The position numbers were made by a program, and so were the translations under genes. A stretch of 64,000 nucleotides of DNA from Squalus acanthias (Eukaryota), in the NCBI GenBank assembly GCA_030390025.1, contig CM059432.1, positions 71,984,001-72,048,000 on the forward strand, written 5' to 3'. Each line of letters opens with the position of its first letter. Position 1 is the stretch's first letter. Positions 1 to 35,098 of this stretch are shown piece by piece. A model generated the notes under the pieces. It was not told where the DNA came from. It saw only the letters and a program-made list of their open reading frames with translations, and did no database searches.

Positions 1-103
1 CAGTGCTTCCGACATGTCTTCCTTTTTCCTCAACCGAGGATTCCCCTCTACAGTGGTTGACACGGCCCTTAACCGTGTCCGTTCCATCTCCCGCACTTCT
101 GCC
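1..103 (+). mobile_element. Penelope-like element, part upstream of the proviral insertion (continues beyond window start)
   Basis: Removing 104-12803 rejoins ...CGCACTTCTGCC|CTCACCCCGG..., reading RTSALTPAPPSRNHDRVPLVLTFHP in frame with the GIY-YIG ORF at 12800-13460. Confidence 0.85.
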
Positions 104-1724
104 TGTAAGGGATTCTGACCCTGCGTGTCTCGCAGCCTGTGAGATTCACGCGGCTCTGTGCAGCCTGTATGTCAGTGCGGGTCTAGGCCTCGTTGCCTGT
201 TCTGGTCTCCAGCCAGTCTGGGAACACTAGACACACCTGTGAGTGGTTCGAATCACTGTCCCTTACGGTTCTAGACACTGGACTTAGATGCGAGAGCAGT
301 AATGGAGATGAAACTCATGTAGACTCGGTTTGAATGGTACGAAATGGAAAATCTTTATTGCATGATACTTAAGATTATGAAATACATGTCATAAGCACAG
401 ATTAATGACAGTACAATCTTACAAACAGTTATATAGTCGATCTTAGGGAAACGAGGAACGAACGGCACAAAGTAAATAGGGGCACACATTACAAATATCC
501 TTAATCCTTAAACCCTCCCCTATCAATATCTATCCTAAACTAGATTCGTAGGATCTCGAGACTCATGCTCACCACTCGTGATAACTCGGAGAAATTCCGA
601 ATAGCTGATTGGATGTTTTTCACCGCAGCACCCACGTGTCGGTCAGGAGATCTCCTGGTCCCACTTGTTTACTTGCTTCTGCTGCTCCGGCTAGCAGGCT
701 GGAACGTCTGCTGTGATGAAGACCTGTGTTGGTTGGTTTAACAGGTACTTTTCGAGCACAGTTGTCAATATCATCGATACGATATGTTTCCTTGCAAGTT
801 CGAAGAAGTCTTCCTGGCAAGGAAAACTTGGCTAATCGACCTACAGGCGCGGTCGGGATTTACTGACCGTGGCGATGGATATGGTCTTCCTCTCTTCTCA
901 TCTCATCTCATCTCATCTCATCTCGGGCCTTTGGTTCCGCTGCCAGTTACCAACATAGGTCTTCGTTACGCGACACGAGGTAGATCCGAACGGATCAGAA
1001 AGTTCAACAGTCCTTTTCAAAAGAGGCAACAGGCAAGCAGAAGCCCAACTACGAGTACACAGGAGCAGCCACGATGATAAGAGCAGCAAGAGAAAGATGG
1101 ACGGTTTGGAGCCTGCAATTATAGTGCAAAATCTTCCGTTTCCCGCCCAACTATAATGTCCATTCTTTTGTTTAGGGTTTGGCGCTCAAATGTCTTGTAT
1201 GGGTGATCTCCGTTCTTAATGGGTTTCGGGGCTACTCGTAAATGTCTGAGTACCTGTTAATATTTCTCCCATTGTTAAATCGGTCGGTGTTCTCCCTGGA
1301 GGGGTTTGGGGCTTCCAAGTGTCCTGTATAACTACCTGCTAACGGCTCTCTCATCGTAGAGTCGTTGGGATTTTACATATTAATGTCTTTTGGATGGGCC
1401 CTTGATTACTCGGTACAATGGCTTTCCTTTGTACCTGGGAGACCGATTTCAGTATCTATGTGTATACTGCAAACCCATAATGTCTCGTGTAATTATCTTC
1501 ACTGTGCTGACTCTTAATCGATCTTGCACAAATGTTTATTGGAACGCCATCTTGTCTGCCTGTTGAAAAGTCTAGAATGTTCTGTCACGAGGTGCGGCGG
1601 CCATTTTACAGGCTGCTTGTGTCCACTTTAAACCTGTCAGCATTCTGCTGAAATAAAAGCTGTTTGAACGAAACTCTGTGTTTTCTCCTTATTAACAAAA
1701 TCGCGATATATTGCGAATTCTACA
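104..1724 (-). repeat. 3' LTR (1621 bp)
   Basis: Direct repeat of 11159-12799; begins TGTAAGGG, ends TTCTACA; contains (TCTCA)5 at 896-920. Confidence 0.97.
354..359 (-). promoter_or_regulatory. Candidate LTR polyadenylation signal AATAAA
   Basis: TTTATT on plus strand, about 250 bp from the LTR 3' end in element orientation, compatible with an R/U5 boundary. A second AATAAA near 1535 lies in the probable U3. Confidence 0.45.
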
Positions 1725-1736
1725 GTCCCTCCTGTT
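1725..1736 (-). promoter_or_regulatory. Polypurine tract
   Basis: AACAGGAGGGAC directly abuts the TG of the 3' LTR on the minus strand. Confidence 0.75.
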
Positions 1737-2176
1737 GATGCGAATAACTCCGCTTATCGTATCAAAAATCATAGTGGTGAGCAATATTATCTCGATTTCT
1801 CTCCGAATCCAGCAAATTAATCCCATAAATTTAACCTATCTAGGGTCTCTGTGTCGTCCTTATTTCCCGAGAAAATTACATTTTATATCACCGTAGGCAT
1901 TATTTGCCCTTAAACTTACACCACTTGTTTTCCTTCCCGGCGTAACCAGGCCGATGCCTCTCGTATCACCTGTATATTCATCTTTTATTCAGGGAAAGGA
2001 AAAACAAAACTCAAAACCAAAACAATCATTTTTAACTGTAACACCATCACCAAAATAATCAACACCAACTCTTAAAACATGTCGAGTTCCCAACGTATTT
2101 ACAATCTCTGAAGAATCATGATCGAGTACAAACTTCCGCGGCGCACGTGGCGAGCGGGAGTGACGCCATTTTCCGA

Positions 2177-4528
2177 TCACACGGTACTTTCATCGTGCAC
2201 GCGCACGTAACGTTCTCGCCACTCTCCCGTGTTTTCATGCTTGGTGAGGCGCTTGTCTCTTTTACAATGTACGACCAATAGGTACACTACAATAAACACT
2301 TGGCATACGACTAAAATGTGGGAGGCTATTCTAATCCATGAAGGCACTTCAATATTGGTGAACAGATTCCACCACGGTGGAACTACTATATCCAAAATGT
2401 CTGTTCCTATTTCGACAGTTTTCTGTTCTAATGTGTAAAAGTGTTTCTGTGACACCGCGACGGCTTTTAAAAGCTTGGTGAGGTGTTCAGGGAGAGGGGG
2501 AATGAGGTATCCAAAATGCGCGACGAATCGCTGCAAGTCGGTGAAATTCTCTTTTACTGTGAGATGAACAGTGGATGGTTCAGGGATTGGGATAATTCGC
2601 TGTTGTGCTACTTGAACTTCCGCCCTGGGTTTAAAACAGAAACTGCTGTCACTCACCGGACACCGGCTACGGTTTCCATGCTGGTAGTGTTGCGCTGCAG
2701 TGGTAACACAATATGTTCCACCCCCGATGTATGCTAACTGCGGAGGCACATGATCTTGTGCCATTGCCTCCATGGTGCAATTCATGGACTTGGCGCCAGT
2801 CGTTCTGAACCCGCACTGTGGTGTTAAAAAGGCATTCAAGTGCTGGGGGCACAGTATTATGTGTGCTCCCCTGCCACGACAACCAGAGAGATCTGTACCT
2901 GTCATCGTTTGCTCCCAGCGGATGACGTAAGGTGGAACCGCTGCATAACGAATGTGGGCTCCCCCCTGAATGACACCAATGTTCTCTACCCGATACACCG
3001 GGGCGGGCTTTGCTGTGTCGCCCAAAACCGGCATACGTAATACTATTCCCATAATAGTATGGTTTGAACGTCCGCAGTCCACGGGGACTGGGTATGCTTC
3101 TGAAGCTAGCCTGAGCTGGCATGGACTTAATGCGTTCTGAAAAGGGTGGAGCGCCCGCAGGTGTTTGTTACTTATCCAGGACGGAACCAAACCTTGTTTT
3201 AAATCCTCCAAATTACTGCGGCCCTCGCCCAGTAACCACGCCCCGTAAAGCACGCACACCTCGTTCTGCGCAGCTTGATCGGATGCATTCCGATCTTCCC
3301 TAATCAGGGCATTTACCGTCTTTGCATGTTTCTCCAACTCTGCTATAATTTCCTTTAAATGGAGAGTCATGGCTTGGTCCTCGTGTAAACCTGACCCTAC
3401 CACTTTATTCTCATCTGTTAGAATGTCTTTTAATTGTGTCTTTAAACCATTAATCTGGGTCTGCAGCTCCACACTGTCTAGAGCGTTGACCACAGATGTA
3501 CCCGTGTTAAAAGCAGTGAACGCATCGTTCACCAAACCCCTTCTTTGCCTCCCTGCTTGATTCAAAACTTCCTGTGGTGCGGTGTACAAACTTGTTTTAT
3601 CAATTTCCGCGAAATCGAATTCGTAAAATTGTCTGAACATCTTGGTCAACAGGACCTGGTACAACTGTTCCGTCTTTTTGGGGCACCACTCTGGTAACCG
3701 CACCTCGGTGAGATTTAAAATCACCGAGGCCACCGCGTAATGTACCCCCTGAAATAGTATCTGGTCTGTGGGGACTAGTACCAAACCATTCCCGGGTCCC
3801 TTACTAGTTTTAGGGCACCCTTCTTCCTCAGCTAGAACCACCGGAATCGTGGGCGGGGCTTTGCGTGGGCGCGTAATGAGCTCAGTGGCATTTACTGGGA
3901 TCGGGGAGAACGGGGCTCCGCACCCCCTGGTGCTCGCATCCCACCTCATCCCCTGTCCGTTATCCTGCCATTGATTAATGAAAAATATGGAGATGCCTTT
4001 GGGGCAAACGTACTTTGACCCCCACATACATACATAAATTCCCTCGTCCGGTTCCCACCATTTGTCCCAACAGACTTTCACTTGTCCGTTTGTCCCCGTA
4101 ATTGTCCGATGGGTATTATTACCCAGTCGTTCCCACTCGACCGAAGAGTTCCTCATAGTTTTGCTCAGCTTTCGCAGCCACCACCATCGGCTCAATGGGA
4201 CCTTCCCACTACAAGTCAAACAAATCCGTTTGCCGACGGTGACGCTGATCCTGGGTGCGATGATCCTTACTTTGGGGCACAGTAAAGAAGTCTCTTTGTA
4301 GGCAAACCCCGATGTGCTAGAATACTCCGTTGAGTTCGTTCCTAGCCATCCTGGCCACCTTCCCTTGTGGAAATAGGTGCTGGTCTCCTCTGCCTCCCGT
4401 CTTCCGGTCCCATCCACCGCGATGGGGGCCGTGTCCCCGGAACATCCAAACACCACGACATCCTTGGTGCGGCCTCGATAGGCCAATCCACATCCGATTG
4501 CCACGAGCAATACTAGAATTCGTTCCAT
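2177..4528 (-). CDS. env: Envelope glycoprotein (~783 aa from M62 of the 844-aa ORF): signal peptide, Ig-like domain, class I fusion protein resembling paramyxo/pneumovirus F, TM anchor
   Basis: Signal peptide MERILVLLVAIGCGLA; furin site RQRR|GLVNDAFTAF (3550-3539) followed by a heptad repeat; Cys-rich region; TM IASHILVVCQVFIVVYLLVVHC; about 10 N-x-S/T sequons; located between pol and the 3' LTR. Confidence 0.9.
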   Translation of the reverse strand: MERILVLLVAIGCGLAYRGRTKDVVVFGCSGDTAPIAVDGTGRREAEETSTYFHKGRWPGWLGTNSTEYSSTSGFAYKETSLLCPKVRIIAPRISVTVGKRICLTCSGKVPLSRWWWLRKLSKTMRNSSVEWERLGNNTHRTITGTNGQVKVCWDKWWEPDEGIYVCMWGSKYVCPKGISIFFINQWQDNGQGMRWDASTRGCGAPFSPIPVNATELITRPRKAPPTIPVVLAEEEGCPKTSKGPGNGLVLVPTDQILFQGVHYAVASVILNLTEVRLPEWCPKKTEQLYQVLLTKMFRQFYEFDFAEIDKTSLYTAPQEVLNQAGRQRRGLVNDAFTAFNTGTSVVNALDSVELQTQINGLKTQLKDILTDENKVVGSGLHEDQAMTLHLKEIIAELEKHAKTVNALIREDRNASDQAAQNEVCVLYGAWLLGEGRSNLEDLKQGLVPSWISNKHLRALHPFQNALSPCQLRLASEAYPVPVDCGRSNHTIMGIVLRMPVLGDTAKPAPVYRVENIGVIQGGAHIRYAAVPPYVIRWEQTMTGTDLSGCRGRGAHIILCPQHLNAFLTPQCGFRTTGAKSMNCTMEAMAQDHVPPQLAYIGGGTYCVTTAAQHYQHGNRSRCPVSDSSFCFKPRAEVQVAQQRIIPIPEPSTVHLTVKENFTDLQRFVAHFGYLIPPLPEHLTKLLKAVAVSQKHFYTLEQKTVEIGTDILDIVVPPWWNLFTNIEVPSWIRIASHILVVCQVFIVVYLLVVHCKRDKRLTKHENTGEWRERYVRVHDESTV

Positions 4529-4818
4529 CTTTCCTTGGTTCCTGTGATCAGATAGAATGAGGTAGCCAGCCTCGCAAGAGTCTCTGGCTTTTGTGAAGGG
4601 TGAGCGGGTCCCCTGACCTCGCCTCACGTAAACTTCAACGTTCGCTGAATAAACTTTAACTAAACCTATCTTTAAAACTCCCATCATTTTATCGTTTTCT
4701 GTTAAAAACACTACAAACTTAACCTTAAACTATAAACTTAAAACTTAACCTTGAACTATAAACTTAAAACTTAGAACTTCTTACTATACAGTGCCGCCCG
4801 TTCTCAGGGCGGCCCCCT

Positions 4819-7800
4819 TTAAATTCTGAGAAGGCTGCTGCGAGCTCTTCCCGACGGTGGGAGGGCACTGACCCTTCCCTCTGATCTGCCGCAGCCTGTT
4901 ACTGCGCTGACCCTTCCCTCTGATCTGCCGCAGCCTGTTACTGCTGCGATGTGGCCGGTCTGTATCTGGGTTATCTTAACCTTAAATTTTCGCCTTGGGG
5001 CAGTCTGGGGACATGACCACATCCTCCTGGGCTGGGGTTCTCTACTTGACCTACGGGGAGTTGCTATGGGCGGGGGTTCCGTGACGGACGGACCGGGTTC
5101 CGAGACTTCCATCGGGATGACCTGGGGTTCCATCACAGTCGCTGGCTCCGCCTCCGCTGACTCCGCCTCCCTAACCTCGGGGCTGGCAGTTCGTGGCTCC
5201 GCCCTGCTCGGCCCAGCAGGCGGCCCTTCACTCGTGATCTCTGCCTCCCCCGAGGACTGGACGTTCAAAGCGGGCGGCCACATCTCTGGGAGCCACACCG
5301 GTACTCTCTGTGCTCCCATAGCGGCTGGCCCTGCCTCCTCTAGCTCCTCCCTCCTGTCCTCGGGACCTGCAGCTTGTGTGTCCACCCTGTGTGGATCTCT
5401 ACCTACAGCCCCCATTCCCTCCAGACCGTTCCTCAGGAACCACCCGTCATCATCACTATGCTCATCTGCACTATCCTCATCTGACCAGGGTACCCTGAAT
5501 TCTTCCTCATCTAACCCCCAATTCCAGAAAAACGCTGCATGATCGTCCGGGATGTCCCTTCCCCTGATGCAAGCTGCTATGCCTGCCTGTGTGCCTTGTG
5601 GTCCTACCTGGGGCTGTGCTTTCCCATTGGCGGGATTTACCCCTGTAGTTTTCCCTTGCGCACCTGGCTGGTACAGTTTGCATTGGTTTATGTGGAACCA
5701 CTTAGTGCGCCGTGGTACTTTTACGGCGTAAACCATGGGACTCGCCTTGTCTACAATGTTGTAGGGTCCCATATACAGTGGTTCCAGACTCCCTACTCTG
5801 GCGTAGTTTCTGACCATGACCTGGTCTCCCACTTCCCACTCCCGCGTTGTGCGGGGTTCCAGCAACAAGCGATTGCCCTGATGCTGCCTTCCCATGTTCC
5901 CAGCCGCCTGCTCATAAACTTGCTTCAGGCGCTCCAAGAGAGTCTGGGCGAACTTGTCCCTGCTTATCTCCTGGAGCTGACCCTCAGTGAGCACCGGGGC
6001 TAGCACATGGGTGGGGGTTCGCATGAGCCTCCCGGTCATTACCTCGTGCGGGGAGTACCCCGTACTTTTTGACTGACTGGCCCGGACCCCCATGAGGACT
6101 AAAGGCAGAACTTCCGCCCATTTTTGGGGCGAGTTCCTAGTCTCTTTCCTCAATTTCTCCTTCAGGGTCCGGTTCATGCGTTCAACAATCCCGGATGACT
6201 GGGGATTGTGTGCTACGTGCCACTTCCCTTCAATGCCCAAAAGCATGAGGGTGTTCTGCATCACCTGGCCGGTGAAATGACTCCCTTGGTCTGACTCCAC
6301 AAAACGGGGGAGTCCCCACCGCGAGAACACTTCCCGGACCAAGATTTTTGCTGTACCCAGTGCCGTAGCTGTTCGACAAGGGAAGGCTTCCACCCACTTG
6401 GAAAACACATCCACCAGGACGAGGCAGTACTTATAACCTCCCTGGGTGGTGGGCAGGGGTCCTATATAGTCGATCTGTATCGACTGCCATGGTCCCTCTA
6501 CCCTTCTTACGTGTCCCATGGGCACCTTCCTTTTCTGGGGGTCTGGGTTGTTTGCAGCGCACACAAGACAGTTTGCGCAGAACTCGCGGACTTGTTCCCT
6601 GAGCCCTGGCCACCATCCCGCTTGCTCTACCCGTTGCCAGGTAACCTCGGGCCCGGGGTGCCCTGCCCCTGGTCCCTCGTGAGCCAACTGGAGGAATTCC
6701 CTCCTGTGCTGCTGCGGCACAACCCACTGCTCCTCGCGGAACAGCATGCCTTCCTTAACTGAGAGGGTTGCCGTACTGTACGGACCTTCTACCTGCCTCC
6801 CCTCAGCAATCGTTTTTAGGACTGCTTTTAGGGCGGGATCCTGGGCTTGGACGGTCTTAAGGTCTAGGGGCAATGCTACCCTGGGGTTCCCGGGATTCCC
6901 GTCCCCGCCTCGGACCGCTGCTATGGGTCCGGTCCTATAGGGGTTCCAGAAAGTGCCGTCGCGGGCACCCTCCCTGGCTAGCGCATCCGCCTGCCGGTTG
7001 CCCTCCCCACGGGGCTCTGTGGAGGAGTGAGCTTTCACCTTATGGATGAAAATCTCTCCTTCCTCCCCCACTGCTGCTGCTAAGATCTTTTCCAGCAAGG
7101 GCTTCACCGTTAAAGGTCGCCCGTCCGCGGAGGTGTATCCGCGGCGGGACCAAATGGCCAGGTATTCCGTACACGAATTGCAGGTGAACATGCTGTCCGA
7201 GCAAATCGTGTATGGGGTTGGGAAAATGTCTGGGTGGGTCACAACGTACACCACGGCAGACAGCTCAGCTTCCTGCGCGCTCATAGTGCTAGGGAGCTTG
7301 ATCGCCAGGGCAAGGTCTGCCGCAGGGTCATAAACTCCACACCCTGTGAGTCGCTCGCCAGCAGATACTGTGCTAGACCCATCAACATAAATCTCGCGCC
7401 CAGTGGGATGTATCCCGGCCCGTAAACCTATGTTGACGTCCCATACCCCTTCCACCGAACACCGGTGGGCTGTACCGGGGTATACCAAATTGGCCGCAAG
7501 CCTTGGCTCGCAAAGACCTTTTACTCTGAGATCCAACTGGGAGAGGAGAAGGGTCCAACGCGCAATGCGTGCGCTGCTTACGGTCCCGTCTTTAATCCTC
7601 CCATCCAGAAGCATCTTAGTTGGTGTGTGATGTGTGAGGAGAGTGATGGGAGAGAGCCCTGTGAAGATCGCTGATCTTTTCACAGCCCAATGCGTGGCTA
7701 AAAGGTGCCTTTCGCAATTGGAGAAACTTCTCTCCACATCCGTTAACACCCTGGATGAATAGGCAACCGGCCTCAGCTTGCCGTGACGCTCTTGGAGCAG

Positions 7801-9342
7801 TACGGCGCTTAAGCTGTCTCCGCTGGCAGCTACCTCCAGGAAAAACTCCTTCCCCCCATCTATGGCCCCTAAGGCTGGCGCGGTCTGCAGATCCCTTTTT
7901 AACTTCTCGAAGGCTGCTTGGCAGCCCTCGTCCCAAAACCACTCCACCCCCTTATGGAGGAGTCGGAGGAGCGGCGCCGCTGTGGCCGCATAATCTTCGA
8001 TAAAATCCCTGCAGTAACCGGTCAGTCCCAAGAAGGACCTCACACCCCTTACGTTGTTGGGAATCGGTAATTCTTGCACCGACTCCCTCCTCGCTTTGTC
8101 TATGGCTCTTTCTCCAGCGCGTATGGTCAGTCCCAGGAAGTTTACTTCCCGCTGACCGATACGTGCTTTCTTAGGGTTTATTTTAAAACCCTTTCTCGCT
8201 AACAGCTCCAATAACTCGTCCAGTAGTGGTCCGTGCTCCTCCCTTGAGTCCGTAAATAGGAGCAAATCATCCACATACTGGACTATCTGATTGGGCTGAC
8301 TAAACTCCTTTAAACTTCCTGCCATACACTGATGAAAAATACTGGGGCTATTGTGGAAACCCTGTGGCAGACAGTTCCACGTGTACTGTTGCCCTTTGAA
8401 AGTAAAGGCAAACTTGTACTGGTCCTCTCGCCGCAGCGGGATGGACCAAAAACCGTTCGAGATATCCAGCACCGTGAACGTGGTCGCGGACGCTGGGATG
8501 CTCCCTATTAGGTCAGCAACTGCTGCTACTGTGGGCGCGCAGGCGGGAATGTTACTGTTAAGGACTCTGTAGTCCACCGTGGCTCTCCACGAATTATCCG
8601 GCTTCCTAACCGGCCATAATGGGGAGTTCACGTGTGTGGCTATCGGCCTCAACACGCCCTGCTGCACCAAGGAAGACATTGCTGTCTCCATATCGGGTTC
8701 GGCTTCTTTGGGGAAGTTATACTGCTTTTGGGGTCGGGTCATGGGGTCCCCATCTACGCTGACCTCAAACCCGACCACTCTCCCACAATCGTGCTTGTGG
8801 GTTGCAAACGCGTGCATATTATCTGACACGTACGTTTGCATGTCCGTTGGGACATCTGCGACCATAAGCCTGAGGTCGTAGCCTCCGGATGGCTGTACGG
8901 TACACAGGACCCCTGTTTCTTCCTCCCCCGGAATCACTATTACCTCGCCTTTTTCACCTTTAGCCCCCCAGAGACAGTGATTTCTGAGGTCCACGAGGAT
9001 CCCGTGTCCCGCTAGGAGATCAGACCCGAGAATACCTCTTCCACCCCCCTTTTGCCATGCCATCAGTATACACTTCCACTTAAGGCGAAGTGTTCCTAAA
9101 CGAATGGATAGCGGAAGGGAAAACGTGCCAGCCTGTTCTTTTCCTGTGAACCCTGCTAACGTGAATGGGACCTTGGTAGATAGCGGCGAGTCAAAAGGGT
9201 TATCTGTATGGATTATGGTGCAAGAAGCTCCCGTGTCCAACAAATAACTACCCTTCTGTTTCTCTACCTCCATCTCCACCACAGGTCGCCTCCACGCATC
9301 ATAGCTAAGCGGACACAGGTAGACGGGCTGCGCCGGTTCTAG
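4819..9342 (-). CDS. pol: Pol polyprotein (protease, RT, degenerate RNase H tether, RNase H, integrase, C-terminal extension), in frame with gag
   Basis: LLDTGAS; LPQG..YVDD; tether FFLEVAAS..RPVAYSSR; RNase H IYVDGS/AQEAEL/CSDS/HKVKAH/GNRQAD; IN HHCC, QIDYIGP, ESDQGSHF, GIVERMN, GPY. Frame is open from the gag stop onward. Confidence 0.97.
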   Translation of the reverse strand, partial: LEPAQPVYLCPLSYDAWRRPVVEMEVEKQKGSYLLDTGASCTIIHTDNPFDSPLSTKVPFTLAGFTGKEQAGTFSLPLSIRLGTLRLKWKCILMAWQKGGGRGILGSDLLAGHGILVDLRNHCLWGAKGEKGEVIVIPGEEETGVLCTVQPSGGYDLRLMVADVPTDMQTYVSDNMHAFATHKHDCGRVVGFEVSVDGDPMTRPQKQYNFPKEAEPDMETAMSSLVQQGVLRPIATHVNSPLWPVRKPDNSWRATVDYRVLNSNIPACAPTVAAVADLIGSIPASATTFTVLDISNGFWSIPLRREDQYKFAFTFKGQQYTWNCLPQGFHNSPSIFHQCMAGSLKEFSQPNQIVQYVDDLLLFTDSREEHGPLLDELLELLARKGFKINPKKARIGQREVNFLGLTIRAGERAIDKARRESVQELPIPNNVRGVRSFLGLTGYCRDFIEDYAATAAPLLRLLHKGVEWFWDEGCQAAFEKLKRDLQTAPALGAIDGGKEFFLEVAASGDSLSAVLLQERHGKLRPVAYSSRVLTDVERSFSNCERHLLATHWAVKRSAIFTGLSPITLLTHHTPTKMLLDGRIKDGTVSSARIARWTLLLSQLDLRVKGLCEPRLAANLVYPGTAHRCSVEGVWDVNIGLRAGIHPTGREIYVDGSSTVSAGERLTGCGVYDPAADLALAIKLPSTMSAQEAELSAVVYVVTHPDIFPTPYTICSDSMFTCNSCTEYLAIWSRRGYTSADGRPLTVKPLLEKILAAAVGEEGEIFIHKVKAHSSTEPRGEGNRQADALAREGARDGTFWNPYRTGPIAAVRGGDGNPGNPRVALPLDLKTVQAQDPALKAVLKTIAEGRQVEGPYSTATLSVKEGMLFREEQWVVPQQHRREFLQLAHEGPGAGHPGPEVTWQRVEQAGWWPGLREQVREFCANCLVCAANNPDPQKRKVPMGHVRRVEGPWQSIQIDYIGPLPTTQGGYKYCLVLVDVFSKWVEAFPCRTATALGTAKILVREVFSRWGLPRFVESDQGSHFTGQVMQNTLMLLGIEGKWHVAHNPQSSGIVERMNRTLKEKLRKETRNSPQKWAEVLPLVLMGVRASQSKSTGYSPHEVMTGRLMRTPTHVLAPVLTEGQLQEISRDKFAQTLLERLKQVYEQAAGNMGRQHQGNRLLLEPRTTREWEVGDQVMVRNYARVGSLEPLYMGPYNIVDKASPMVYAVKVPRRTKWFHINQCKLYQPGAQGKTTGVNPANGKAQPQVGPQGTQAGIAACIRGRDIPDDHAAFFWNWGLDEEEFRVPWSDEDSADEHSDDDGWFLRNGLEGMGAVGRDPHRVDTQAAGPEDRREELEEAGPAAMGAQRVPVWLPEMWPPALNVQSSGEAEITSEGPPAGPSRAEPRTASPEVREAESAEAEPATVMEPQVIPMEVSEPGPSVTEPPPIATPRRSSREPQPRRMWSCPQTAPRRKFKVKITQIQTGHIAAVTGCGRSEGRVSAVTGCGRSEGRVSALPPSGRARSSLLRI

Positions 9343-11154
9343 TCATGGGGTACTATTAGACGGTCCTTCGGCACCTACGGGGCCGGTTGCGACCGCCACC
9401 TGTCCACGCGCATTCAAGACCAGCTTGCGCATGGCTCCTAACACTGCTTCGAGGTCGTCGGGAGGGGTGGGAGCACTAGCTTCCCTAGCCGGGACAGGCG
9501 CCTGGGCTCGGACCGCGGGATTTTTATCCTTGGAATCCTTCCAAGGGTTCCTGCAATGCTTGCGCCAGTGCCCTGTCTTCCCACACCCGTAACAAGCATT
9601 ACCTGCCTGTGGGGCGCGATTACCCTCCTGATGCCACTCTCTTTGATACGGGGCTGCGGGTCGTACCTCATGTACTTTTCCCTTAAGGGGACGTGTTGCC
9701 ATACCCCTTATATTGCAATAACCTAACGTGAGTCGATTCAAGACCGACTCTTCCGTAATGTTGGGGTCATTGGGATCAAACCATGCTTTTGCCTGCTCTC
9801 TGACGGCTGGTAAACTGTTGGCTATTATGCACCTAAGCCAATGAGTTAAAGCGGTGCCTTCCACATCTTCGCGCTCGGGCGCACCTAGGCAGCTGCGCTC
9901 ATATACTGGCCACAGCCTGTCGGCAAAAACCTTCGGGGGTTCTCCCTCCATCTGCACTGTCTGTCCCACTCTAGCAAACGGACCTTCGTCGTTCGCCCCC
10001 AACACTTCCAGGACCTCATTCTTTAATTCCTCATAACTCTTGGTTCCCCTCTTGCTCTCGCCTGAGAGACACTGAAGGACCGAGCTGTCTAATGAGAACA
10101 GCAGCATTTTTGCTGTCTCCCCATCATCGCAGCCGTTAATGGCTGCGGCTTGCTCAACTTCTCTGAAATGTACGGAAGGGTCGTCTGCCTCGGTCAGCTT
10201 CCGTACGTGATTTATCATAGCTCTCAGCTGATGTGAACTGTGAGGCAACACCAGCTGTCCGAGGAGATCCCCCGGTTCTTCCCCACCGTTTCTGCTTGGG
10301 CCCCTTTTAATACCCGTTACTGGATACAACGATCCCTTTCCTACTTCTTTTTCAATGGGCTCTTTTGTTTCTTCCATTGCTTCCTCCCTAACCCAGGTTT
10401 CTGAATAGCTGGGTGGCGCGGAGGGCGCAGTGGCTACTACTTCTTCTGCTTTACTTGGTGGGGATTTTCTAAATCTCTCATTTACTAGCGGCTGGTGTGC
10501 CGACGGATTGATGAGGCACACCATGCCGTTCGCATTGTTCACGGCCTTTTTGAGGTGCTCTATCTCCCTTTGGCAGGCGCTATGATCGGCTCCCTGAAAC
10601 TTATCCTCAAGGGCCAACTTATATGCCGCCCTAACCCCCGTTAAGCTCTCTTCTTGAGTTCTTATCTGGGCAGCTTGGCGGTTACATCTCTCCTTTAACC
10701 TGCTTTCATTCAACTTCGCCTCAGTGACCTGGCACTCGAGATAATCTATCCTTGTTTTAAGGTGACTGGAGACTTCCTGGCTTTCTTGGTGTAACTCATT
10801 TAAATTCTTAATGAGCACCTCCCCTCCAGAAACCTTCTCATCCATTTCTCCCTCTAAATGACTGATTCGAGCTACTAGCGCTGTAATGGTCTGGTTTGAA
10901 ATCTGAACCTGCCTTTTGTAACACATAAGCCAGACTGCTTTCTCAAGTGTCTTTCTATGTTCTTTACTATCTGTCCACCTTTCGGCTGCCTCTAGCGGAC
11001 TTTTATCCGCTAACAATTCACTTATCCATTTCTTAGTTAGATTAACCTTTCCAAACACATAATCTGCTATCTTTTCCTGCATAACATTTCGTACAGTCAT
11101 TCCAAAGTCTAACACACTACCCTCTCGCTGCCAGTGTCCTGCCGCGGTCGCCAT
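9343..11154 (-). CDS. gag: Gag polyprotein (603 aa)
   Basis: First ORF after the 5' LTR; N-terminal coiled-coil-like region, PSAPPSY motif, CCHC knuckle CYGCGKTGHWRKHC. Confidence 0.95.
   Translation of the reverse strand: MATAAGHWQREGSVLDFGMTVRNVMQEKIADYVFGKVNLTKKWISELLADKSPLEAAERWTDSKEHRKTLEKAVWLMCYKRQVQISNQTITALVARISHLEGEMDEKVSGGEVLIKNLNELHQESQEVSSHLKTRIDYLECQVTEAKLNESRLKERCNRQAAQIRTQEESLTGVRAAYKLALEDKFQGADHSACQREIEHLKKAVNNANGMVCLINPSAHQPLVNERFRKSPPSKAEEVVATAPSAPPSYSETWVREEAMEETKEPIEKEVGKGSLYPVTGIKRGPSRNGGEEPGDLLGQLVLPHSSHQLRAMINHVRKLTEADDPSVHFREVEQAAAINGCDDGETAKMLLFSLDSSVLQCLSGESKRGTKSYEELKNEVLEVLGANDEGPFARVGQTVQMEGEPPKVFADRLWPVYERSCLGAPEREDVEGTALTHWLRCIIANSLPAVREQAKAWFDPNDPNITEESVLNRLTLGYCNIRGMATRPLKGKVHEVRPAAPYQREWHQEGNRAPQAGNACYGCGKTGHWRKHCRNPWKDSKDKNPAVRAQAPVPAREASAPTPPDDLEAVLGAMRKLVLNARGQVAVATGPVGAEGPSNSTP
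11136..11153 (-). promoter_or_regulatory. Primer-binding site, tRNA-Ser-like (imperfect), overlapping gag ATG
   Basis: TGGCGACCGCGGCAGGAC starts 5 nt after the LTR end. TGGCG...GGCAGGA resembles the complement of vertebrate tRNA-Ser 3' ends, with internal mismatches. Confidence 0.6.
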
Positions 11155-11158
11155 TTTC

Positions 11159-12799
11159 TGTAAGGGATTCTGACCCTGCGTGTCTCGCAGCCTGTGAGAT
11201 TCACGCGGCTCTGTGCAGCCTGTATGTCAGTGCGGGTCTAGGCCTCGTTGCCTGTTCTGGTCTCCAGCCAGTCTGGGAACACTAGACACACCTGTGAGTG
11301 GTTCGAATCACTCTCCCTTATGGTTCTAGACACTGGACTTAGATGCGAGAGCAGTAATGGAGATGAAAGTCATGTAGACTCGGTTTGAATGGTACGAAAT
11401 GGAAAATCTTTATTGCATGATACTTAAGATTATGAAATACATGTCATAAGCACAGATTAATGACAGTACAATCTTACAAACAGTTATATAGTCGATCTTA
11501 GGGAAACGAGGAACGAACGGCACAAAGTAAATAGGGGCACACATTACAAATATCCTTAATCCTTAAACCCTCCCCTATCAATATCTATCCTAAACTAGAT
11601 TCGTAGGATCTCGAGACTCATGCTCACCACTCGTGATAACTCGGAGAAATTCCGAATAGCTGATCGGATGTTTTTCACCGCAGCACCCACGTGTCGGTCA
11701 GGAGATCTCCTGGTCCCACTTGTTTACTTGCTTCTGCTGCTCCGGCTAGCAGGCTGGAACGTCTGCTGTGATGAAGACCTGTGTTGGTTGGTTTAACAGG
11801 TACTTTTCGAGCACAGTTGTCGATATCATCGATACGATATGTTTCTTTGCAAGTTCGAAGAAGTCTTCCTGGCAAGGAAAACTTGGCTAATCGACCTACA
11901 GGCGCGGTCGGGATTTACTGACCGTGGCGATGGATATGGTCTTCCTCTCTTCTCATCTCATCTCATCTCATCTCATCTCATCTCATCTCATCTCATCTCG
12001 GGCCTTCGGTTCCGCTGCCAGTTACCAACATAGGTCTTCGTTACGCGACACGAGGTAGATCCGAACGGATCAGAAAGTTCAACAGTCCTTTTTCAAAAGA
12101 GGCAACAGGCAAGCAGAAGCCCAACTACGAGTACACAGGAGCAGCCACGATGATAAGAGCAGCAAGAGAAAGATGGACGGTTTGGAGCCTGCAATTATAG
12201 TGCAAAATCTTCCGTTTCCCGCCCAACTATAATGTCCATTCTTTTGTTTAGGGTTTGGCGCTCAAATGTCTTGTATGGGTGATCTCCGTTCTTAATGGGT
12301 TTCGGGGCTACTCGTAAATGTCTGAGTACCTGTTAATATTTCTCCCATTGTTAAATCGGTCGGTGTTCTCCCTGGAGGGGTTTGGGGCTTCCAAGTGTCC
12401 TGTATAACTACCTGCTAACGGCTCTCTCATCGTAGAGTCGTTGGGATTTTACATATTAATGTCTTTTGGATGGGCCCTTGATTACTCGGTACAATGGCTT
12501 TCCTTTGTACCTGGGAGACCGATTTCAGTATCTATGTGTATACTGCAAACCCATAATGTCTCGTGTATTATCTTCACTGTGCTGACTCTTAATCGATCTT
12601 GCACAAATGTTTATTGGAACGCCATCTTGTCTGCCTGTTGAAAAGTCTAGAATGTTCTGTCACGAGGTGCGGCGGCCATTTTACAGGCTGCTTGTGTCCA
12701 CTTTAAACCTGTCAGCATTCTGCTGAAATAAAAGCTGTTTGAACGAAACTCTGTGTTTTCTCCTTATTAACAAAATCGCGATATATTGCGAATTCTACA
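11159..12799 (-). repeat. 5' LTR (1641 bp)
   Basis: Direct repeat of 104-1724; (TCTCA)9 at 11951-11995. Confidence 0.97.
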
Positions 12800-13460
12800 T
12801 GCCCTCACCCCGGCCCCTCCCTCCCGGAACCACGATAGAGTTCCCCTTGTCCTCACCTTTCACCCCACCAGCCTCCACATTCAATGTATCATCCTCCGCC
12901 ATTTCCGCCACCTCCAGCGTGATCCCACCACCAAACGCATCTTCCCCTCACCTCCCCTTTCAGCATTCCGTAGGGACCGCTCCCTCCGCGACACCCTGGT
13001 CCACTCCTCTATCGCCCCCAACACCCTTTCCCCTTCACCCGGCACCTTCCCGTGCAAGCGCAGGAGATGCAACACATGCCCTTATACCTCCCCACTTCCC
13101 ACTGTCCAGGGCCCCAAACACCCCTTCCAGGTGAAACAGCGATTTACTTGTACTTCTTGCAATTTAGTATACTGTATTCGCTGCTCACGATGTGGTCTCC
13201 TCTACATTGGGGAGACCAAACGCAGATTGGGTGACCGCTTTGTGGAACACCTCCGTTCAGTCCGTAAGGGGGACCCCGAGCTTCCGGTCGCCTGTCACTT
13301 TAATTCACTGCTCCACTCCCACTCAGACCTCACCGTCCTCGGCCTCTTGCATTGTTCCACGGAAGCGCAGCGTAAGCTCGAGGAACAGCACCTCATCTTT
13401 CGATTAGGCACTTTACAGCCTTCTGGACTCAACATAGAATTCAACAATTTCAGATCATAA
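12800..13460 (+). pseudogene. Penelope-like element ORF C-terminus (linker + GIY-YIG endonuclease), interrupted by the provirus
   Basis: CKRRRCNTC, NLVYCIRCSRCGLLYIGETKRRLGDRFVEH, VACHF, EEQHLIFRLGTLQPSGLNIEF are typical PLE GIY-YIG motifs. Confidence 0.92.
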
Positions 13461-22315: not shown

Positions 22316-25300
22316 TCCAGGATGGTATGTTGCCTCCCTGGTGCAAGGGTCAAGGATGTCTCGGAGCGGCTGCAGAACATTCTGGAAAGGGAGGGTGAAG
22401 AGCCAGCTGTCGTGGTGCATGTAGGTACCAACGATATAGATAAAAAGCGGGAAGAGGTGCTACAAGCAGAATTTAGGGAGCTAGGAGCTAAATTGAAAAG
22501 TAGGACCTCAAAGGTAGTAATCTCTGGGTTGCTACCAGCCACGTGCTAATCAGAGTAGCATGAACAGGATAGCGAGATTAAATACGTGGCTTGAGCAGTG
22601 GTGCAGGAGGGAGGGATTCAAATACCTGAGGCATTGGAACCAGTTCTGGGGGAAGTGGGACCTGTACAAAAGGGACGGTCTGCACTTGGGCAGGACTGGA
22701 ACCAATGTCCTCGGGGTAATATTTGCTAAGGCAGTTCGGGAGGATTTAAACTAATATGGCAGGGGAATGGGAACCTATGTAGCGAAACAGGGGGAAGTAA
22801 TATGCAGTCAGAAACAAATGTTAGAAGGGTGAGAAACAATAAGGGTAATCCGAGTAAACAAAGGCAAGAAACACAAAGGGCCATACTAAATCATAAGTCT
22901 AAAAGGACAAAGGGTGTTAATAAAACAAGCCTAAAGGCTCTGTGTCTTAATGCAAGGAGTATCCGTAGTAAGGTGGATGAATTGACTGTGCAAATTGATG
23001 TTAACGGATATGATGTGATTGGGATTACAGAGACGTGGCTCCAGAACAATCAAGACTGGGAACTGAATATCCAGGGGTATTCAACATTCAGGAAGGATAG
23101 AATAAAAGGAAAAGGGGGTGGGGTAGCATTGCTGGTTAAAAAGGAGATTAATGCAATAGCTAGGAAGGACATTAGCTTGGAGGATGTGGAATCAATATGG
23201 GTTGAGCTGCAGAACACCAAAGGGCAGAAAACGTTAGTGGGGGTTGTGTACAGACCTCCAAACAGTAGTAGTGAGGTGGGGGAGGGTATGAAACAGGAAA
23301 TCAGAGGTGCATGCAAAAAAGGCGCTGCAGTTATCATGGGTGACTTTAATATGCATATAGATTGGGCTACTCAAACTGGAAGCAATACGGTGGAGGAGGA
23401 TTTCCTGGAGTGTTTAAGGGATGGTTTCCTAAACCAATATGTTGAGGAACCAACTAGAGGGGAGGCCATCCTGGACTGGGTGTTGTGTAATGAGGAAGGA
23501 CTAATCAGCAATCTTGTGGTGCGAGGCCCCTTGGGGAAGAGTGACCATAGTATGGTGGAGTTCTACATTAGGATGGAGAAGGAAACAGTTAATTCAGAGA
23601 CCATGGTCCAGAACTTAAATAAGGGCAACTTTGAGGGTATGAGGCGTGAATTGGCGAGGTTAGATTGGCAAGCGATATTTAAGGGGTTATCAGTGGAAGG
23701 GCAATGGCAGACATTTAGAGATCGCATGGATGAACTACAGCAATTGTACATCCCTGTCTGGCGTAAAAATAAAAAAGGGAAGATGGCTCAACCATGGCTA
23801 ACAAGGGAAATCAGGGATAGTATTAAAAGCAAGGAAGTGGCATACAAATTGGCCAGAAGTAGCAGCAAACCCGGGGACTGGGAGAACTTTAAAACTCAGC
23901 AGAGGAGGACGAAGGGTTTGATTAGGGCAGGGAAAATAAAATATGAAAGGAAGCTTGCGGAGAACATTAAAACGGACTGCAAAAGCTTCTATAAATATGT
24001 AAAAAGAAAGAGGTTAGTAAAAACAAACGTAGGTCCCCTGCAGTCAGAAACAGGGGAAGTCATAATGGGGAACAAAGAAATGGCAGATCAATTGAACAAG
24101 TACTTTGGTTCGGTGTTTACTGTGGAGGACACAAACAACCTTCCGGAAATAAAAGAGATCAAAGGATCTGGTAAGAGGGAGGAGCTGAGGGAAATCCTTA
24201 TCAGTCGGGAAAAGGTGTTGGGGAAATTGATGGGACTGAAGGCTGATAAATCCCCAGGGCTTGATGGTCTGCATCCCAGAGTACTTAAGGAGGTGGCCTT
24301 GGAAATAGTGGATGCATTGACGATCATTTTCCAACATTCCTTAGACTCTGGATCAGTTCCGAAGGAGTGGAGGGTGGCTAATGTAACCCCTCTTTTTAAA
24401 AAAGGAGGGAGGGAGAAAGCAGGGAATTATAGACCGGTCAGCCTGACATCGGTGGTGGGTAAAATGATGGAATCAATTATTAAAGATGTCATAACAGACC
24501 ATTTGGAAAGTGGCGACATGATAGGTCCAAGTCAGCATGGATTTGTGAAAGGGAAATCATGCTTGACAAATCTTCTGGATTTTTTTGAGGATGTTTCCAA
24601 TAGGGTGGACGGGGGGGGAACCAGTAGATGTGGTGTATTTGGACTTTCAGAAGGCCTTCGACAAGGTCCCACACAAGAGATTGGTGTGCAAAGTTAAAGC
24701 ACATGGGATTGGGGGTAATGTGTTGACATGGATTGAGAACTGGTTGGCACACAGGAAACAAAGAGTAGGAGTAAATGGGTACTTTTCAGAATGGCAGGCA
24801 GTGACCAGCGGTGTACCGCAGGGTTCAGTGCTGGGGCCCCAGCTGTTTACATTATATATTAATGATTTGGACGAAGGGATTAATTGTAATATCTCCAAAT
24901 TTGCGGATGACACTAAATTGGGAGGCAGTGTGAACAATGAGGAGGATGCTAGGAGGCTACAGAGTGACTTGGACAGGTTGGGTGAATGGGCAAATGTATG
25001 GCAGATGAAGTACAATGTGGATAAATGTGAGGTTATCCACTTTGGTGGTAAAAATAGGGAGGCAGACTATTACCTGAATGGTGGCAGATTAGGGAAAGGG
25101 GAGGTGCAACGAGACCTGGGCGTCATGGTACATCAGTCACTGAAGGTGGGAAGGCAAGTGCAGCAGGCAGTCAAGAAAGCAAATGGCATGATGGCCTTCA
25201 TAGCAAGGGGATTTGAGTACAGGAGTAGGGAGGTGATGCTACAGTTGTACAGGGCCTTGGTGAGGCCACACCTGGAGTATTGTGTGCAGTTTTGGTCTCC

Positions 25301-25830
25301 TAACTTGAGGAAGGACATTCTTGCTATTGAGGGAGTGCAACGAAGGTTCACTAGATTGATTCCTGGGATGTCCAGACTGACATATCAAGAAAGACTGGAT
25401 CAACTGAACTTGTATCCTCTGGAGTTCAGAAGAATGAGGGGGGATCTTATAGAGACGTTTAAAATCCTGACTGGTTTAGACAAATTAGATGCGGGCAGAA
25501 TGTTTCCAATGTTAGGGAAAACTAAAACCAGGGGTCACAGTCTAAGGATAAAGGGGAAGCCATTTAAGACTGAGATGAGGAGGAATTTCTTCACCCAGAG
25601 AGTGGTGAGTCTGTGGAATTCTCTGCCACAGAAGGTTGTTGAGGCCAGTTCGCTAAATATATTCAAAAGGGAGTTAGATATAATACTCACATCTAGGGGG
25701 ATCAAGGGGTATGGCGAGAAAGCAGGAATGGGGTACTGAGGTAGCATGTTCAGCCATGAACACATTAAATGGCGGTGCAGGCTCGAAGGACCGAATAGTC
25801 TACTCCTGCACCTATTTTCTATTTTTCTAT
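22316..25830 (+). mobile_element. 5'-truncated young CR1 LINE (ORF1 SGNH esterase end + ORF2 + 3' UTR)
   Basis: ORF1 CCLPGA..VVHVGTND..RDGLHL (frameshift near 22540); ORF2; TTTCTAT-type tail interrupted by the MITE at 25831. Confidence 0.95.
22802..25739 (+). pseudogene. CR1 ORF2 apurinic endonuclease-reverse transcriptase with one frameshift in the G8 run at 24611-24618
   Basis: EN: NARS, ITETWL, GDFN, SDH; RT: YRPVSL, DFQKAFD, GVPQGSVLGP, FADD. The 631-aa and 384-aa ORFs overlap at the homopolymer. Confidence 0.93.
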
Positions 25831-31900: not shown

Positions 31901-33643
31901 AGCAAAGCATCCATTTTAGAAACCGTTGATTTTCATTTCCTTTGAAATCGTTGGGAATGACAATCAGATAGTCTGTAACAGGCAGCCGATCCGCAACCCA
32001 GTTATACACCCGGGCGGCAAGTTAAAAATCTACCCCCCTATTTACCAGACTAAATATATGACCTAAAGTCTGAGCCGTGAATCAGTTGAAGTGCTACAAA
32101 TTATTTTGTAAATCAATAAATAAAACCTTTTCTCTGTGTATTTTTGTCCAATTACAGTTGTAAAGCAATCTCATTCATTGCATCAGATGTTTTATTTTTT
32201 TGAAAAAGGACTTCCAAAAATGTGCATCTGTAAAGGGTTCATGGACTTTGAACCAGACAATATCTTCTCAGTGAAATAATACCCCATACAGATAGGCACG
32301 TTTTCCAGAAAAGAAAATGAGATAATAGAATCATCGAGATTGTGAAACATAAGAAGGGTGTTACTCCATGATGCAATGGGTGATCCTTCACCAGAGCTAT
32401 CTACTCTAATCTTACTTCTCTACTCTATTCCTGGGAGAAATATTTTTCTGCTTCAAGAGTTTATCGATGCAATCATAAAAGTTGTGATTGACTCAACTCT
32501 AATGGCCACGAGTCAGGGATAACAGATATATGTCTTGACAATGGAGAAGTGATCTGAAGACTGAACTCCATATGGATTCGCAATAGAGAAAATGAATGTT
32601 TCCAGAGGCAAACTAGCTTCTTGGGAAATGTACACCCAGTCTGAGGCAAAGAGCAGCCTTCCTCCGTGTCAATGAATGTATGGCAAAATGAGCAAGCACG
32701 GATTGAGGCTTCCAAGCTAATGATTTTCTCCTCAGGGAGTACTCTCAAAAGAGTTGGAGTAGTTTTACATGGGTAATTGCTAATATGGGCTGCAGCTTCT
32801 GTTAAAGAAGTTATATTCTCTCTGAGCCTTTGTTGGTAGCGACGAAGCTTAAAATTGCACGGCTGCATTAGTTTTTGATAATAGCCGTAAACATAGTTGA
32901 ATAAATCAACAGGGAACTTTGATTCAGTAAAAATAGAAGTGGCTTTGCATTTCCTTTACAGAGCTATATTCCCAACGCGAACGTATGAGTTCCCTCCCCG
33001 CCTCCCCGTAAATATCGGGGCCTTTATCTCACAATCGCTGTATTTCGTTTTGCAAAGTGTAGTTTATGAAAAGTGCATATTGACCAGAATTCTGAATTAT
33101 TCGTGCTCTGAGAAAGGAGTGAAAACAGAAAGGGGTAAAAATTCACTTGGTTGCGCCTCCCGTTAGCGCCTTAAGAGGGCGCTAATGGGGCGTTAAGCCG
33201 CTAACGCCCGGGCGCAGCGCTGTTTGCGCCGCTCGAGAACTTAACTTGAGATTGTGCGGCGGCGCTAAAACTTACCGCTGCGACCACCTGCGCGCGCAGA
33301 TTGTGACGTCATTTCATGGTGCAACGCCCTTGGGGCGCCCCGGAGCGGAAATTGAGTGGCGCCCCCTGCCTTACCGCCTGGCGCTTCCAACGACCGGAAG
33401 ACTGGAACGTTATCAATCGGTGTGGGGCTGGGGGGGGCGCTATTTAAAGGGGGCCTCTTCCTGTCTTTTTCTGTGGTCGACATTTATGCACCACTCGTTC
33501 TGAGAGAGAGAGAGAGATTCGGAGAGAGAGAGAGAGAGACTTCTACATTGACTCAACGCTTTGTGAGGTAGTTTGGCCTAGTTCATCCTAACTTTGTTGC
33601 TACTTTAGTTGCTGTACCTCATTACTTTTCTGGCAAAGAGAAT

Positions 33644-34804: not shown

Positions 34805-35098
34805 GGCCCCTGCCATTGCTACAAACACTAATCAACCCAGCACGCAACCCCTAAGCCGGCCAAGGCACCAATAATTCCAACCACCAGCCATGTATATTTT
34901 GAATACAGAAACTTATTTATTTTACAAACTCTGTGTGTGTCAATTCCTCATGACAAACTCATAGAAATAAACACAAAAAAACAGTCAATAACATAACTGG
35001 TTCTCACAACCTGGAGATAATGTCCAAAACACTAAACAAAAGTTGGACCATGAACCTCGGCCTTTAATAAAAAAATGACCAGCATTTTGGCACACCTC

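Follow-up and report, generated by a model that had tools for sequence, protein, structure and literature searches.

The window (the whole analysed stretch of 64,000 nucleotides from Squalus acanthias) contains an intact provirus that is probably a basal canonical retrovirus of the SnRV-related grade (clade Huo, class III broadly); its family has reached about two thousand copies in a shark germ line through a recent amplification. The features of the provirus and its flanks are as follows.

12799 to 104, minus strand: whole provirus, in intact LTR-gag-pol-env-LTR order
12800..12803: target-site duplication TGCC, right copy, 4 bp
11159..12799, minus strand: 5' LTR, 1641 nt, TG..CA ends
11136..11153, minus strand: primer binding site (PBS), 18/18 complementary to host tRNA-Arg(TCG) plus CCA
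9343..11154, minus strand: gag, 603 aa, open frame
9339..9345, minus strand: in-frame TGA stop between gag and pol, with CTAG immediately after it, a predicted stop-codon readthrough site
4819..9342, minus strand: pol, 1507 aa, open frame
2177..4528, minus strand: env, 783 aa, open frame with its own ATG and signal peptide
4019..4273, minus strand: probable Ig-like domain in the surface part of Env (aa ~86-170), a lead
1725..1737, minus strand: short polypurine tract, directly before the 3' LTR
104..1724, minus strand: 3' LTR, 1621 nt, TG..CA ends
100..103: target-site duplication TGCC, left copy, 4 bp

The LTRs are 99.6% identical, with seven substitutions over 1620 aligned sites (0.43%) and three indels, one of them a 20-nt microsatellite change. 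Read by eye, the 5' LTR has a TATA-like TATATAA (11490-11484) and an AATAAA (11414-11409), which indicate a long U3 and a U5 of about 230 nt. The insertion splits a Penelope-type GIY-YIG frame, which resumes 3' of the right TGCC and continues up to 13460. Together, gag, pol and env provide 8.7 kb of open coding sequence, the sole internal stop being the in-frame gag-pol TGA; downstream of env, no sense ATG ORF longer than 50 codons was found that could serve as an accessory gene. The initial annotation of a complete, young insertion with a target-site duplication and no disabling stop is thus upheld, as is its guess of a cartilaginous-fish host, given 89% identity over 261 aa to a zinc-finger gene of a sawshark and the closest Env relatives, which come from skate and sharks; frog elements also have this Env family. 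Of the host markers tried, the zinc-finger gene alone was informative: a flanking LINE pointed to no useful taxon in the Atlas, a sawshark cadherin matched protocadherins for the most part, and with a beta-globin exon the shark chains did not come first.

The PBS begins 5 nt past the 5' LTR, overlapping the gag ATG. Gag, for which no Pfam family was matched, has an N-terminal coiled coil, a PSAP late-domain-like motif and a single CCHC zinc knuckle at aa 521. Pol has the expected catalytic motifs in place and consists of protease (DTG at aa 36), RT (YVDD at aa 356), a degenerate RNase-H-like tether (aa ~473-612), a second RNase H (aa 650-793), integrase with HHCC and DD35E, and an acidic, proline-rich C-terminal tail of 270 aa.

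Env has a furin site, RQRR, at aa 327-330 and a transmembrane helix at aa ~734-755. By structure comparison, its class I fusion core (aa ~244-710) has the paramyxo/pneumovirus F fold (Z 12.2). Thus, both the dual RNase H and the likeness of Env to Mononegavirales fusion glycoproteins, proposed in the initial annotation, are confirmed. At the sequence level, Env has no matches to PDB sequences at E 1, no Pfam family and, specifically, no PF00523 match. Foldseek also found the F-like fold in Env models of the walleye epsilonretroviruses WEHV-1 and WDSV, and the Env of SnRV (locus L009) matches the profile of our Env family (89% probability, E 2.3e-6, 343 columns), the pairwise BLASTP comparison of the window and SnRV Envs being not significant. 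This supports the view that an Env of the F type is not specific for lokiretroviruses but occurs widely among the basal branches of the retrovirus tree.

The surface head of Env is probably an Ig-like domain, judging by Atlas features of aa ~86-170 (0.88-0.91 to Ig clusters) and weak Pfam Ig matches in Env homologues. This domain stays a lead, because the single-sequence fold of the N-terminal part of Env yielded no usable structure (pLDDT 33.5) and a five-sequence profile matched no Ig chain in PDB.

To place the element, we used an RT tree of 70 rows, comprising one lokiretrovirus sequence (P0114, identified by eye against the published Dataset S3), SnRV (L009, identified by RT) and no Odin sequence, with published SnRV-like ERVs and ERV-L/S absent. 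The Retroviridae clade, with the lokiretrovirus as the outgroup, is supported at 100/99 and 100/98. Within it, the window element sits among frog and coelacanth elements near SnRV, and outside the gamma/epsilon, delta and foamy clades, the foamy rows forming their own 100/100 clade; fish foamy-like ERVs were compared with the window RT by eye only. A gamma/epsilon (class I) ERV is ruled out by the RT lying outside the class I clade and by the absence of the CX6CC motif from Env, and Spumaretrovirinae or foamy-like ERVs, by the RT lying outside the foamy clade. Foamy viruses have a separate pol start, which the window element lacks; the foamy and walleye epsilonretrovirus Envs share the F-like fusion fold with the window Env, but the window RT belongs to neither clade.

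Among named viruses, RT identity is highest for SnRV (44%, compared to 35% for the lokiretrovirus and 31-37% for MLV and foamy viruses). Both elements have a primer site of the arginine-tRNA type, although the SnRV PBS in L009 differs in sequence from that of the window; SnRV itself is said, in a 1996 account by Hart et al., to be primed by tRNA-Arg. Also in common are a single reading frame for gag and pol with a stop between them, a coiled-coil Gag with one zinc knuckle, a homologous Env core, and the C-terminal tail of Pol. The differences are in the junction (UAG-GGC in SnRV, UGA-CUAG in the window element), the LTR length (518 nt and 1.6 kb, respectively), the overlap of the gag ATG with the PBS and the own ATG and signal peptide of env in the window element, its integrase being nearer to that of lokiretroviruses, and its family being endogenous and of high copy number; the 3' accessory ORF and the upstream env leader exon of SnRV are features of SnRV itself rather than of its clade. 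SnRV-like, or clade Huo, ERVs have been described earlier (Naville and Volff, 2016, PMC4977317; Xu et al., 2018, PMC6001957). We found in the openly accessible literature no account of this provirus family, nor of lokiretroviruses in sharks, and a prior annotation in subscription papers, Repbase or Dfam is possible.

There is some chance that the frog, coelacanth and shark elements form a separate, earliest-branching canonical lineage distinct from SnRV proper, with an ancestral F-type Env, tether, and an integrase of the loki/NYNRIN type. Indeed, the window RT belongs to its own clade of ten RTs (94/85), which in the 70-row tree takes a basal position among the canonical retroviruses; tether identity is 42% to the lokiretrovirus and 27% to SnRV, integrase identity is 41% and 35%, respectively, the distances to the lokiretrovirus are short for both tether and integrase, and the Env family is shared with frog elements. 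However, the basal nodes are weak (81/58 and 93/78), and the union of the window RT with SnRV, while not recovered in the free tree, is not rejected by the AU test (p=0.158). In the integrase trees, both with NYNRIN left out, a weak grouping with the lokiretrovirus in the quick tree gave way to a polytomy in the careful one; the SnRV integrase groups with the foamy integrase (93/95), and pairwise identity of RNase H is 25-31% to every reference group. Moreover, coelacanth, amphibian and shark elements have already been grouped as SnRV-like in the literature. A separate lineage is mostly compatible with the SnRV-related placement, the difference being that of naming and rank.

The copy count proposed earlier was performed using junction sequences. 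The gag-pol junction has 1221 exact 15-mer matches genome-wide, compared to five for the control, and the junction of pol-deleted copies that keep gag and env has 1063 matches, that is, ~1,220 and ~1,060 copies, respectively. The LTR-end count, 1899, is below twice the junction counts, which may be explained by divergence of LTR subfamilies (85-97%); the assembly may also hold uncollapsed haplotypes. The family may cover ~0.7% of the shark genome.

We sampled 20 copies by position on contig C1, each covered from the 5' LTR through env codon 465, and additionally 12 3' LTRs, retaining in the counts L055, with an anomalous second LTR, and L048, with a gag deletion and a tandem junction. All 20 copies are colinear with the window provirus at 93-98% identity, 13 of them have open gag and pol frames and an env that is open over the 465 codons covered, and 19 have the identical PBS; the identical polypurine tract precedes the 3' LTR in 11 out of 12. 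The LTR pairs of 12 copies differ by 0-0.34%, four pairs being identical. The LTR lineages of the sampled copies are 22-121 substitutions away from the LTR of the window copy, and several of them each include identical-LTR insertions; the window copy is not the youngest of the family. Among the best candidates only, no stop was found in 26 out of 31 pol and 53 out of 54 env matches, a set biased to intact copies and hence unused for rates. Because substitutions accumulate slowly in sharks, insertions with identical LTRs may date back as much as a few million years, and LTRs can also be made alike by gene conversion.

The dN/dS ratio of env among the sampled copies is 0.05-0.19 (first 465 codons), and pN/pS of shared env variants, 0.06, is the lowest among the genes, across many lineages. 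We propose the following life cycle. The LTR would drive genomic RNA, from which Gag would be translated starting at the ATG overlapping the primer site, with occasional readthrough of UGA-CUAG yielding Gag-Pol. Reverse transcription would be primed by tRNA-Arg(TCG), and integration would create the 4-bp duplications. Env, probably translated from a spliced RNA, would be a furin-cleaved class I fusion protein of the F type, whose receptor-binding head is probably Ig-like. Since env is under strong purifying selection among the copies, the family most likely spread by reinfection, with enveloped particles infecting further cells, and not by purely intracellular retrotransposition, and the pol-deleted subfamily with gag and env has probably been mobilised in trans as a helper-dependent passenger. 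Readthrough, splicing, particle formation, reinfection and present-day activity are what we infer from these genomic data. Contigs from four sequencing runs, of uncertain RNA status, showed no splice joint, which weighs neither for nor against splicing. Alternatively, the selection on env could stem from passage between cells within the gonad, or from exogenous strains having diverged before they entered the germ line separately.

It is unlikely that the copies arose by intracellular retrotransposition or by segmental or tandem duplication, with env being a passenger or kept for a benefit to the host. Tandem copies of the provirus do exist, among the 12 sampled loci one has duplicated flanks and another lacks a target duplication, and the pol-deleted copies must move in trans. 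Nevertheless, ten out of 12 loci have their own 4-bp target duplications, the shared variants show the strongest constraint in env over many lineages, and even the pol-deleted class retains env. Host co-option, in turn, would normally involve a single locus or a few.

The initial annotation regarded the element as a member or relative of lokiretroviruses. Membership, which would make it the first lokiretrovirus of cartilaginous fishes, is very improbable. Lokiretroviruses are defined by RT, and the window RT, when inspected by eye against the full published set of 24 loki RTs, has no loki RT motifs; the canonical retroviruses, including the window element, exclude P0114 at 100/98, and grouping of the window RT with the lokiretrovirus is rejected by the AU test (p=0.036). 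The degenerate loki RT motif has no exact match anywhere in the genome. We reject membership on RT, which nests in canonical Retroviridae, an outcome that the initial annotation had itself set against its proposal; relationship holds loosely, as the tether and integrase are nearer to the lokiretrovirus than to SnRV, with the integrase tree being a polytomy. The nearest Pol proteins bear the name NYNRIN-like, and the loki integrase has been reported to be close to CGIN1/NYNRIN. The layout of Env, when inspected by eye, also resembles the Loki-Xtr Env passage. Still, the dual RNase H and the F-like Env are not diagnostic of lokiretroviruses, because the former is common to all retroviruses and the latter occurs in foamy viruses, walleye epsilonretroviruses and SnRV. 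For foamy virus Env, an F-protein-like fusion fold has been published (PMC11468914). Comparison with the described lokiretroviruses (Wang and Han, 2021, PMC7947760) gives the dual RNase H, an F-like Env with an RXKR-type cleavage site, and a similar tether and integrase as common features, but the window RT lies outside their clade and the window element has no smc gene. None of six chondrichthyan genomes was positive in that loki screen (PMC7947760, Fig. S1), in agreement with the host list given in the initial annotation, and relatives of the window Env are present in three shark species scored negative there. The Odin elements (PMC9040795) differ in having no env.

An ordinary Ty3/gypsy (Metaviridae) retrotransposon with a captured env can be dismissed, since, although among single PDB sequences Pol scores highest against Ty3 Gag-Pol (244 bits), narrowly above MLV RT (238 bits), the second RNase H, the LPQG motif and the RT position inside Retroviridae refute it.

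The previously described SnRV-related ERVs of cartilaginous fishes are few and old, whereas the window family is large, with many open copies. Lineage I of CmiERV from the elephant shark (Han, 2015, PMC4422223), likened here by description rather than by sequence, is an SnRV-related ERV in a cartilaginous fish with one complete copy, whose LTRs are 3.3% apart and which has been dated to ~75 My, the total ERV content of that genome being ~0.007%; in contrast, the window family has thousands of copies, LTRs 0-0.4% apart, and open genes. The published list of invading ERVs (ERVi), such as koala retrovirus, covers 37 host orders and no cartilaginous fish (Wang and Han, 2023, PMC10435555). The window family resembles ERVi in its identical-LTR copies (four out of 12 pairs) and open genes (13 out of 20 copies over the part examined), insertional polymorphism being the third ERVi criterion. 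One contig, from run X9, joins 99 to 12800 as an apparent empty site; we did not count it as polymorphism, as the target is a high-copy Penelope repeat. With this family, germ-line invasion that depends on an envelope can be put to the test in hosts not represented on that list, and its many natural variants lend themselves to studies of how retroviral envelopes of the F type are built and which receptors they use.

A bolder reading, which we hold to be rather doubtful, is that this enveloped retrovirus of the earliest-branching canonical lineage has preserved an ancestral F-type Env, headed by an Ig-like domain, and an integrase of the loki kind. It would at present be entering the germ lines of a number of related sharks while exogenous forms continue to circulate, and a gag-plus-env element would travel with it as a passenger. 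If true, it would be to sharks what koala retrovirus is to the koala, and a surviving link from lokiretroviruses to the canonical ones.

As regards the gag-pol junction, no stable RNA fold was found 3' of the gag stop (z +0.99). The UGA-CUAG class of stop-codon readthrough motifs has been listed for alphaviruses and cellular genes, with retroviruses not among them (PMC13517186); hence, a retroviral junction in this context, with readthrough being predicted, falls outside the groups listed there.

The provirus is most likely a member of the basal retroviruses related to snakehead retrovirus (SnRV), and neither a lokiretrovirus, the initial annotation having proposed a member or relative of that lineage, nor a new kind of element. 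Lokiretroviruses are defined by their reverse transcriptase (RT), and in the published alignment the window RT has LPQGFHNSP where theirs have CPFGY or LPFGY/MPFGY, SnRV being its nearest row as judged by eye (PMC7947760). SnRV was represented by locus L009, which is 10,688 nt long and whose RT matches the published row exactly, the gamma, delta and foamy viruses by L010–L045, and the lokiretroviruses by one protein with their RT motifs, P0114. RT identity to the window is 44% for SnRV, 35% for P0114, 31–37% for MLV-type and foamy viruses, and 44–54% for “NYNRIN-like” Pols of frogs and coelacanth.

In the 70-row RT tree, P0114, the single lokiretroviral sequence, is sister to all canonical retroviruses, while the window RT lies inside the canonical clade (support 100/98), grouped near its base with nine other elements (94/85), including five named from frogs and coelacanth and one further frog entry; the 34-row tree agrees with this placement. 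According to the AU test, forcing the window group with the lokiretroviruses is rejected (p = 0.036), and forcing it with SnRV is not rejected (p = 0.158). The RT phylogeny, the AU test and the RT motifs together contradict lokiretroviral membership. There is also evidence against a simple SnRV label: the tether (42% vs. 27% identity) and the integrase (41% vs. 35%) are more similar to the lokiretroviral protein than to SnRV, and the integrase tree is a polytomy. SnRV-related endogenous retroviruses have been reported in elephant shark, coelacanth and amphibians (PMC4422223, PMC6001957, PMC4977317). No description of the present family was found in the openly accessible literature; its distinctive features are scale, youth, retention of env, a passenger class and the readthrough context.

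The window features are as follows.

12799 to 104, minus strand: provirus with LTR pair, flanked by the target duplication
22730–25739; 33572–36940; 37631–38266; 49397–52495; 57799–58542: CR1-type LINE and Harbinger-type transposons (coordinates given jointly)

The LINE has two long frames, and the several Harbinger-type transposons carry DDE_Tnp_4 and Myb/SANT genes.

The claim of an intact provirus holds. Its LTRs (1641 and 1621 nt, both TG..CA) differ by 7 substitutions over 1620 sites and 3 indels, TGCC is duplicated on either flank, and the insertion interrupts a Penelope-type GIY-YIG frame. Open frames of 603, 1507 and 783 codons make up gag, pol and env, respectively; gag starts 4 nt 3' of the 5' LTR, its ATG overlapping the primer binding site (PBS), and ends in TGA-CTAG, with pol in frame beyond. 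In Pol, Pfam identifies protease and RT domains, a tether that resembles RNase H, another RNase H and an integrase, which bears out a dual RNase H, and Pol retains DTG, YVDD, the RNase H acidic residues, HHCC and DD35E.

The C-terminal tail of Pol (window 5637–4822) is acidic and proline-rich and contains a 39-nt duplication; its dN/dS among copies is ~0.2–1.3, yet the pol-deleted class described below keeps it. The pol–env interval (window 4819–4528) has T-rich 26-nt repeats and an acceptor-like TTTTTAACAG near 4700. Since two in-frame ATGs lie 53 codons upstream of its signal peptide, Env could carry a long leader. Several AAAATGGCG-like motifs, putative YY1 sites, occur in U3, at the PBS and just 3' of env (window 12683–12674 and 12628–12619, 11159–11145, 2170–2160).

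Env has no sequence match in Pfam or PDB. Its relatives are found in skate (76% identity), sawshark (53–72%) and cloudy catshark (68%), and at 17–32% in whale shark, bamboo shark, smooth-hound and frogs; the frog Mantella aurantiaca has 16 nearly identical predicted Envs that belong to this family (P0088 cluster), most of them 677 aa long, perhaps as the result of a parallel young expansion. For the window Env, the AlphaFold model (mean pLDDT 61.9, core 85–95) resembles the F proteins of paramyxo- and pneumoviruses, with a Foldseek E value of 4e-11, a Z of 12.2 and an rmsd of 7.6 over 333 residues, and the F-like Env of the initial reading stands. Its value as a lokiretroviral marker does not, because F-like Envs are also found in walleye epsilonretroviruses (models of WEHV-1/WDSV), in SnRV and in foamy viruses, the last of these being a published case (PMC11468914). 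SnRV Env (L009 6131–9535) matches the Env family profile (89% probability, E 2e-6), its pairwise comparison with the window Env is not significant, and our literature search found no paper describing an F-like Env for SnRV.

The Env head is probably Ig-like, judging from a cysteine/tryptophan pattern of Ig type at residues 86–170, Atlas features of this region (0.88–0.91 to Ig clusters) and weak Ig hits in two homologues; neither fold prediction nor the profile test recovered an Ig fold there. Ig-like receptor-binding domains are known for gamma-type Envs (bioRxiv 2024.03.17.585361).

Copies were counted as junction matches against controls in the 3.71 Gb assembly. The 15-mer at the TGA-CTAG gag–pol junction has 1221 exact matches (controls 5), and a pol-deleted form with a common breakpoint has 1063 (controls 0); these amount to ~25 Mb, 0.7% of the assembly, if all copies are complete, and may include haplotype duplicates. 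The LTR-end count, 1899, is below the expectation from the junctions. The first 20 junction matches by position on contig C1 of the genome (G000) are all colinear between the 5' LTR and the sampled part of env, with 93–98% identity. Of these copies, 18 have an open gag, 16 an open pol and 16 an open frame over the first 465 env codons; 13 combine all three. Head-to-tail tandem copies with common LTRs, at 7.7-kb and 11.1-kb spacing, were observed at four places.

G000:C1 143.65–143.68 Mb: tandem copies
G000:C1 204.98–205.00 Mb: tandem copies
G000:C6 53.08 Mb: tandem copies
G000:C22 50.76 Mb: tandem copies

In the two pol-deleted copies examined, L081 (1921–2165) and L082, which lie on G000:C1 near 20.947 Mb and near 74.304 Mb, ~3.6 kb of pol is replaced by a 245-nt foreign stretch encoding a Gag-like coiled coil. 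Both hold the 603-codon gag and reach env, one with an open env frame, and the frame after the gag stop continues uninterrupted across the Pol tail, for 382 and 373 codons. Their sequence points to recombination with a related virus, and readthrough might yield a Gag product that lacks the enzymes; this class would require Pol in trans.

The UGA-CUAG context would permit Gag-Pol synthesis by stop-codon readthrough. According to a 2026 review, readthrough is intrinsic to the motif UGACUA(G) in alphaviruses and human genes, while the retroviruses treated there have other contexts (PMC13517186); no stable RNA structure was predicted downstream of the gag stop. The PBS, identical in 19 of the 20 sampled copies, is complementary to the 3' terminus of a host tRNA called tRNA-Arg(TCG) by ARAGORN. 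Genes for this tRNA and tRNA-Ser(GCT) form large tandem arrays with a 1.62-kb unit (G000:C26 38.99–42.2 Mb; 424 matches genome-wide).

Pairwise dN/dS against the window copy is 0.17–0.32 for gag (one deleted copy apart), 0.05–0.20 for the pol core and 0.05–0.19 for env, and env pN/pS is 0.06 for variants in 2–17 copies vs. 0.20 for singletons (Fisher p = 0.005). Based on the distinction of three amplification modes (PMC10435555), such conservation of env across many lineages favours reinfection over intracellular retrotransposition; most likely, the element spread as an enveloped retrovirus through repeated reinfection of the germ line. It would form particles and spliced RNA, and may be active at present.

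The proposed youth is borne out by the 0.43% divergence of the window LTRs, corresponding to ~1 My at the mammalian rate and 10 My at a tenfold slower shark rate (Han 2015, PMC4422223). The window copy is older than all of the first 12 sampled copies, whose LTR pairs are 0–0.34% apart (identical in four, spread over different LTR lineages) and ten of which, one at an anomalous locus, have an exact 4-bp duplication.

The host, initially taken for a cartilaginous fish, is very probably a shark, judging from sequence matches: a sawshark zinc-finger protein has 89% identity over 261 aa in the genome vs. 73% at the next full-length loci, and all named close Env relatives are elasmobranch. Other host markers (a flanking LINE, a sawshark cadherin and a beta-globin exon) gave no informative match. 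Among sequencing runs X1–X20, five organisms contain over half of the words sampled from the element, and may be close relatives or reflect cross-species spread; in runs X6, X9, X14 and X19 all 30 bins are covered at at least 90%.
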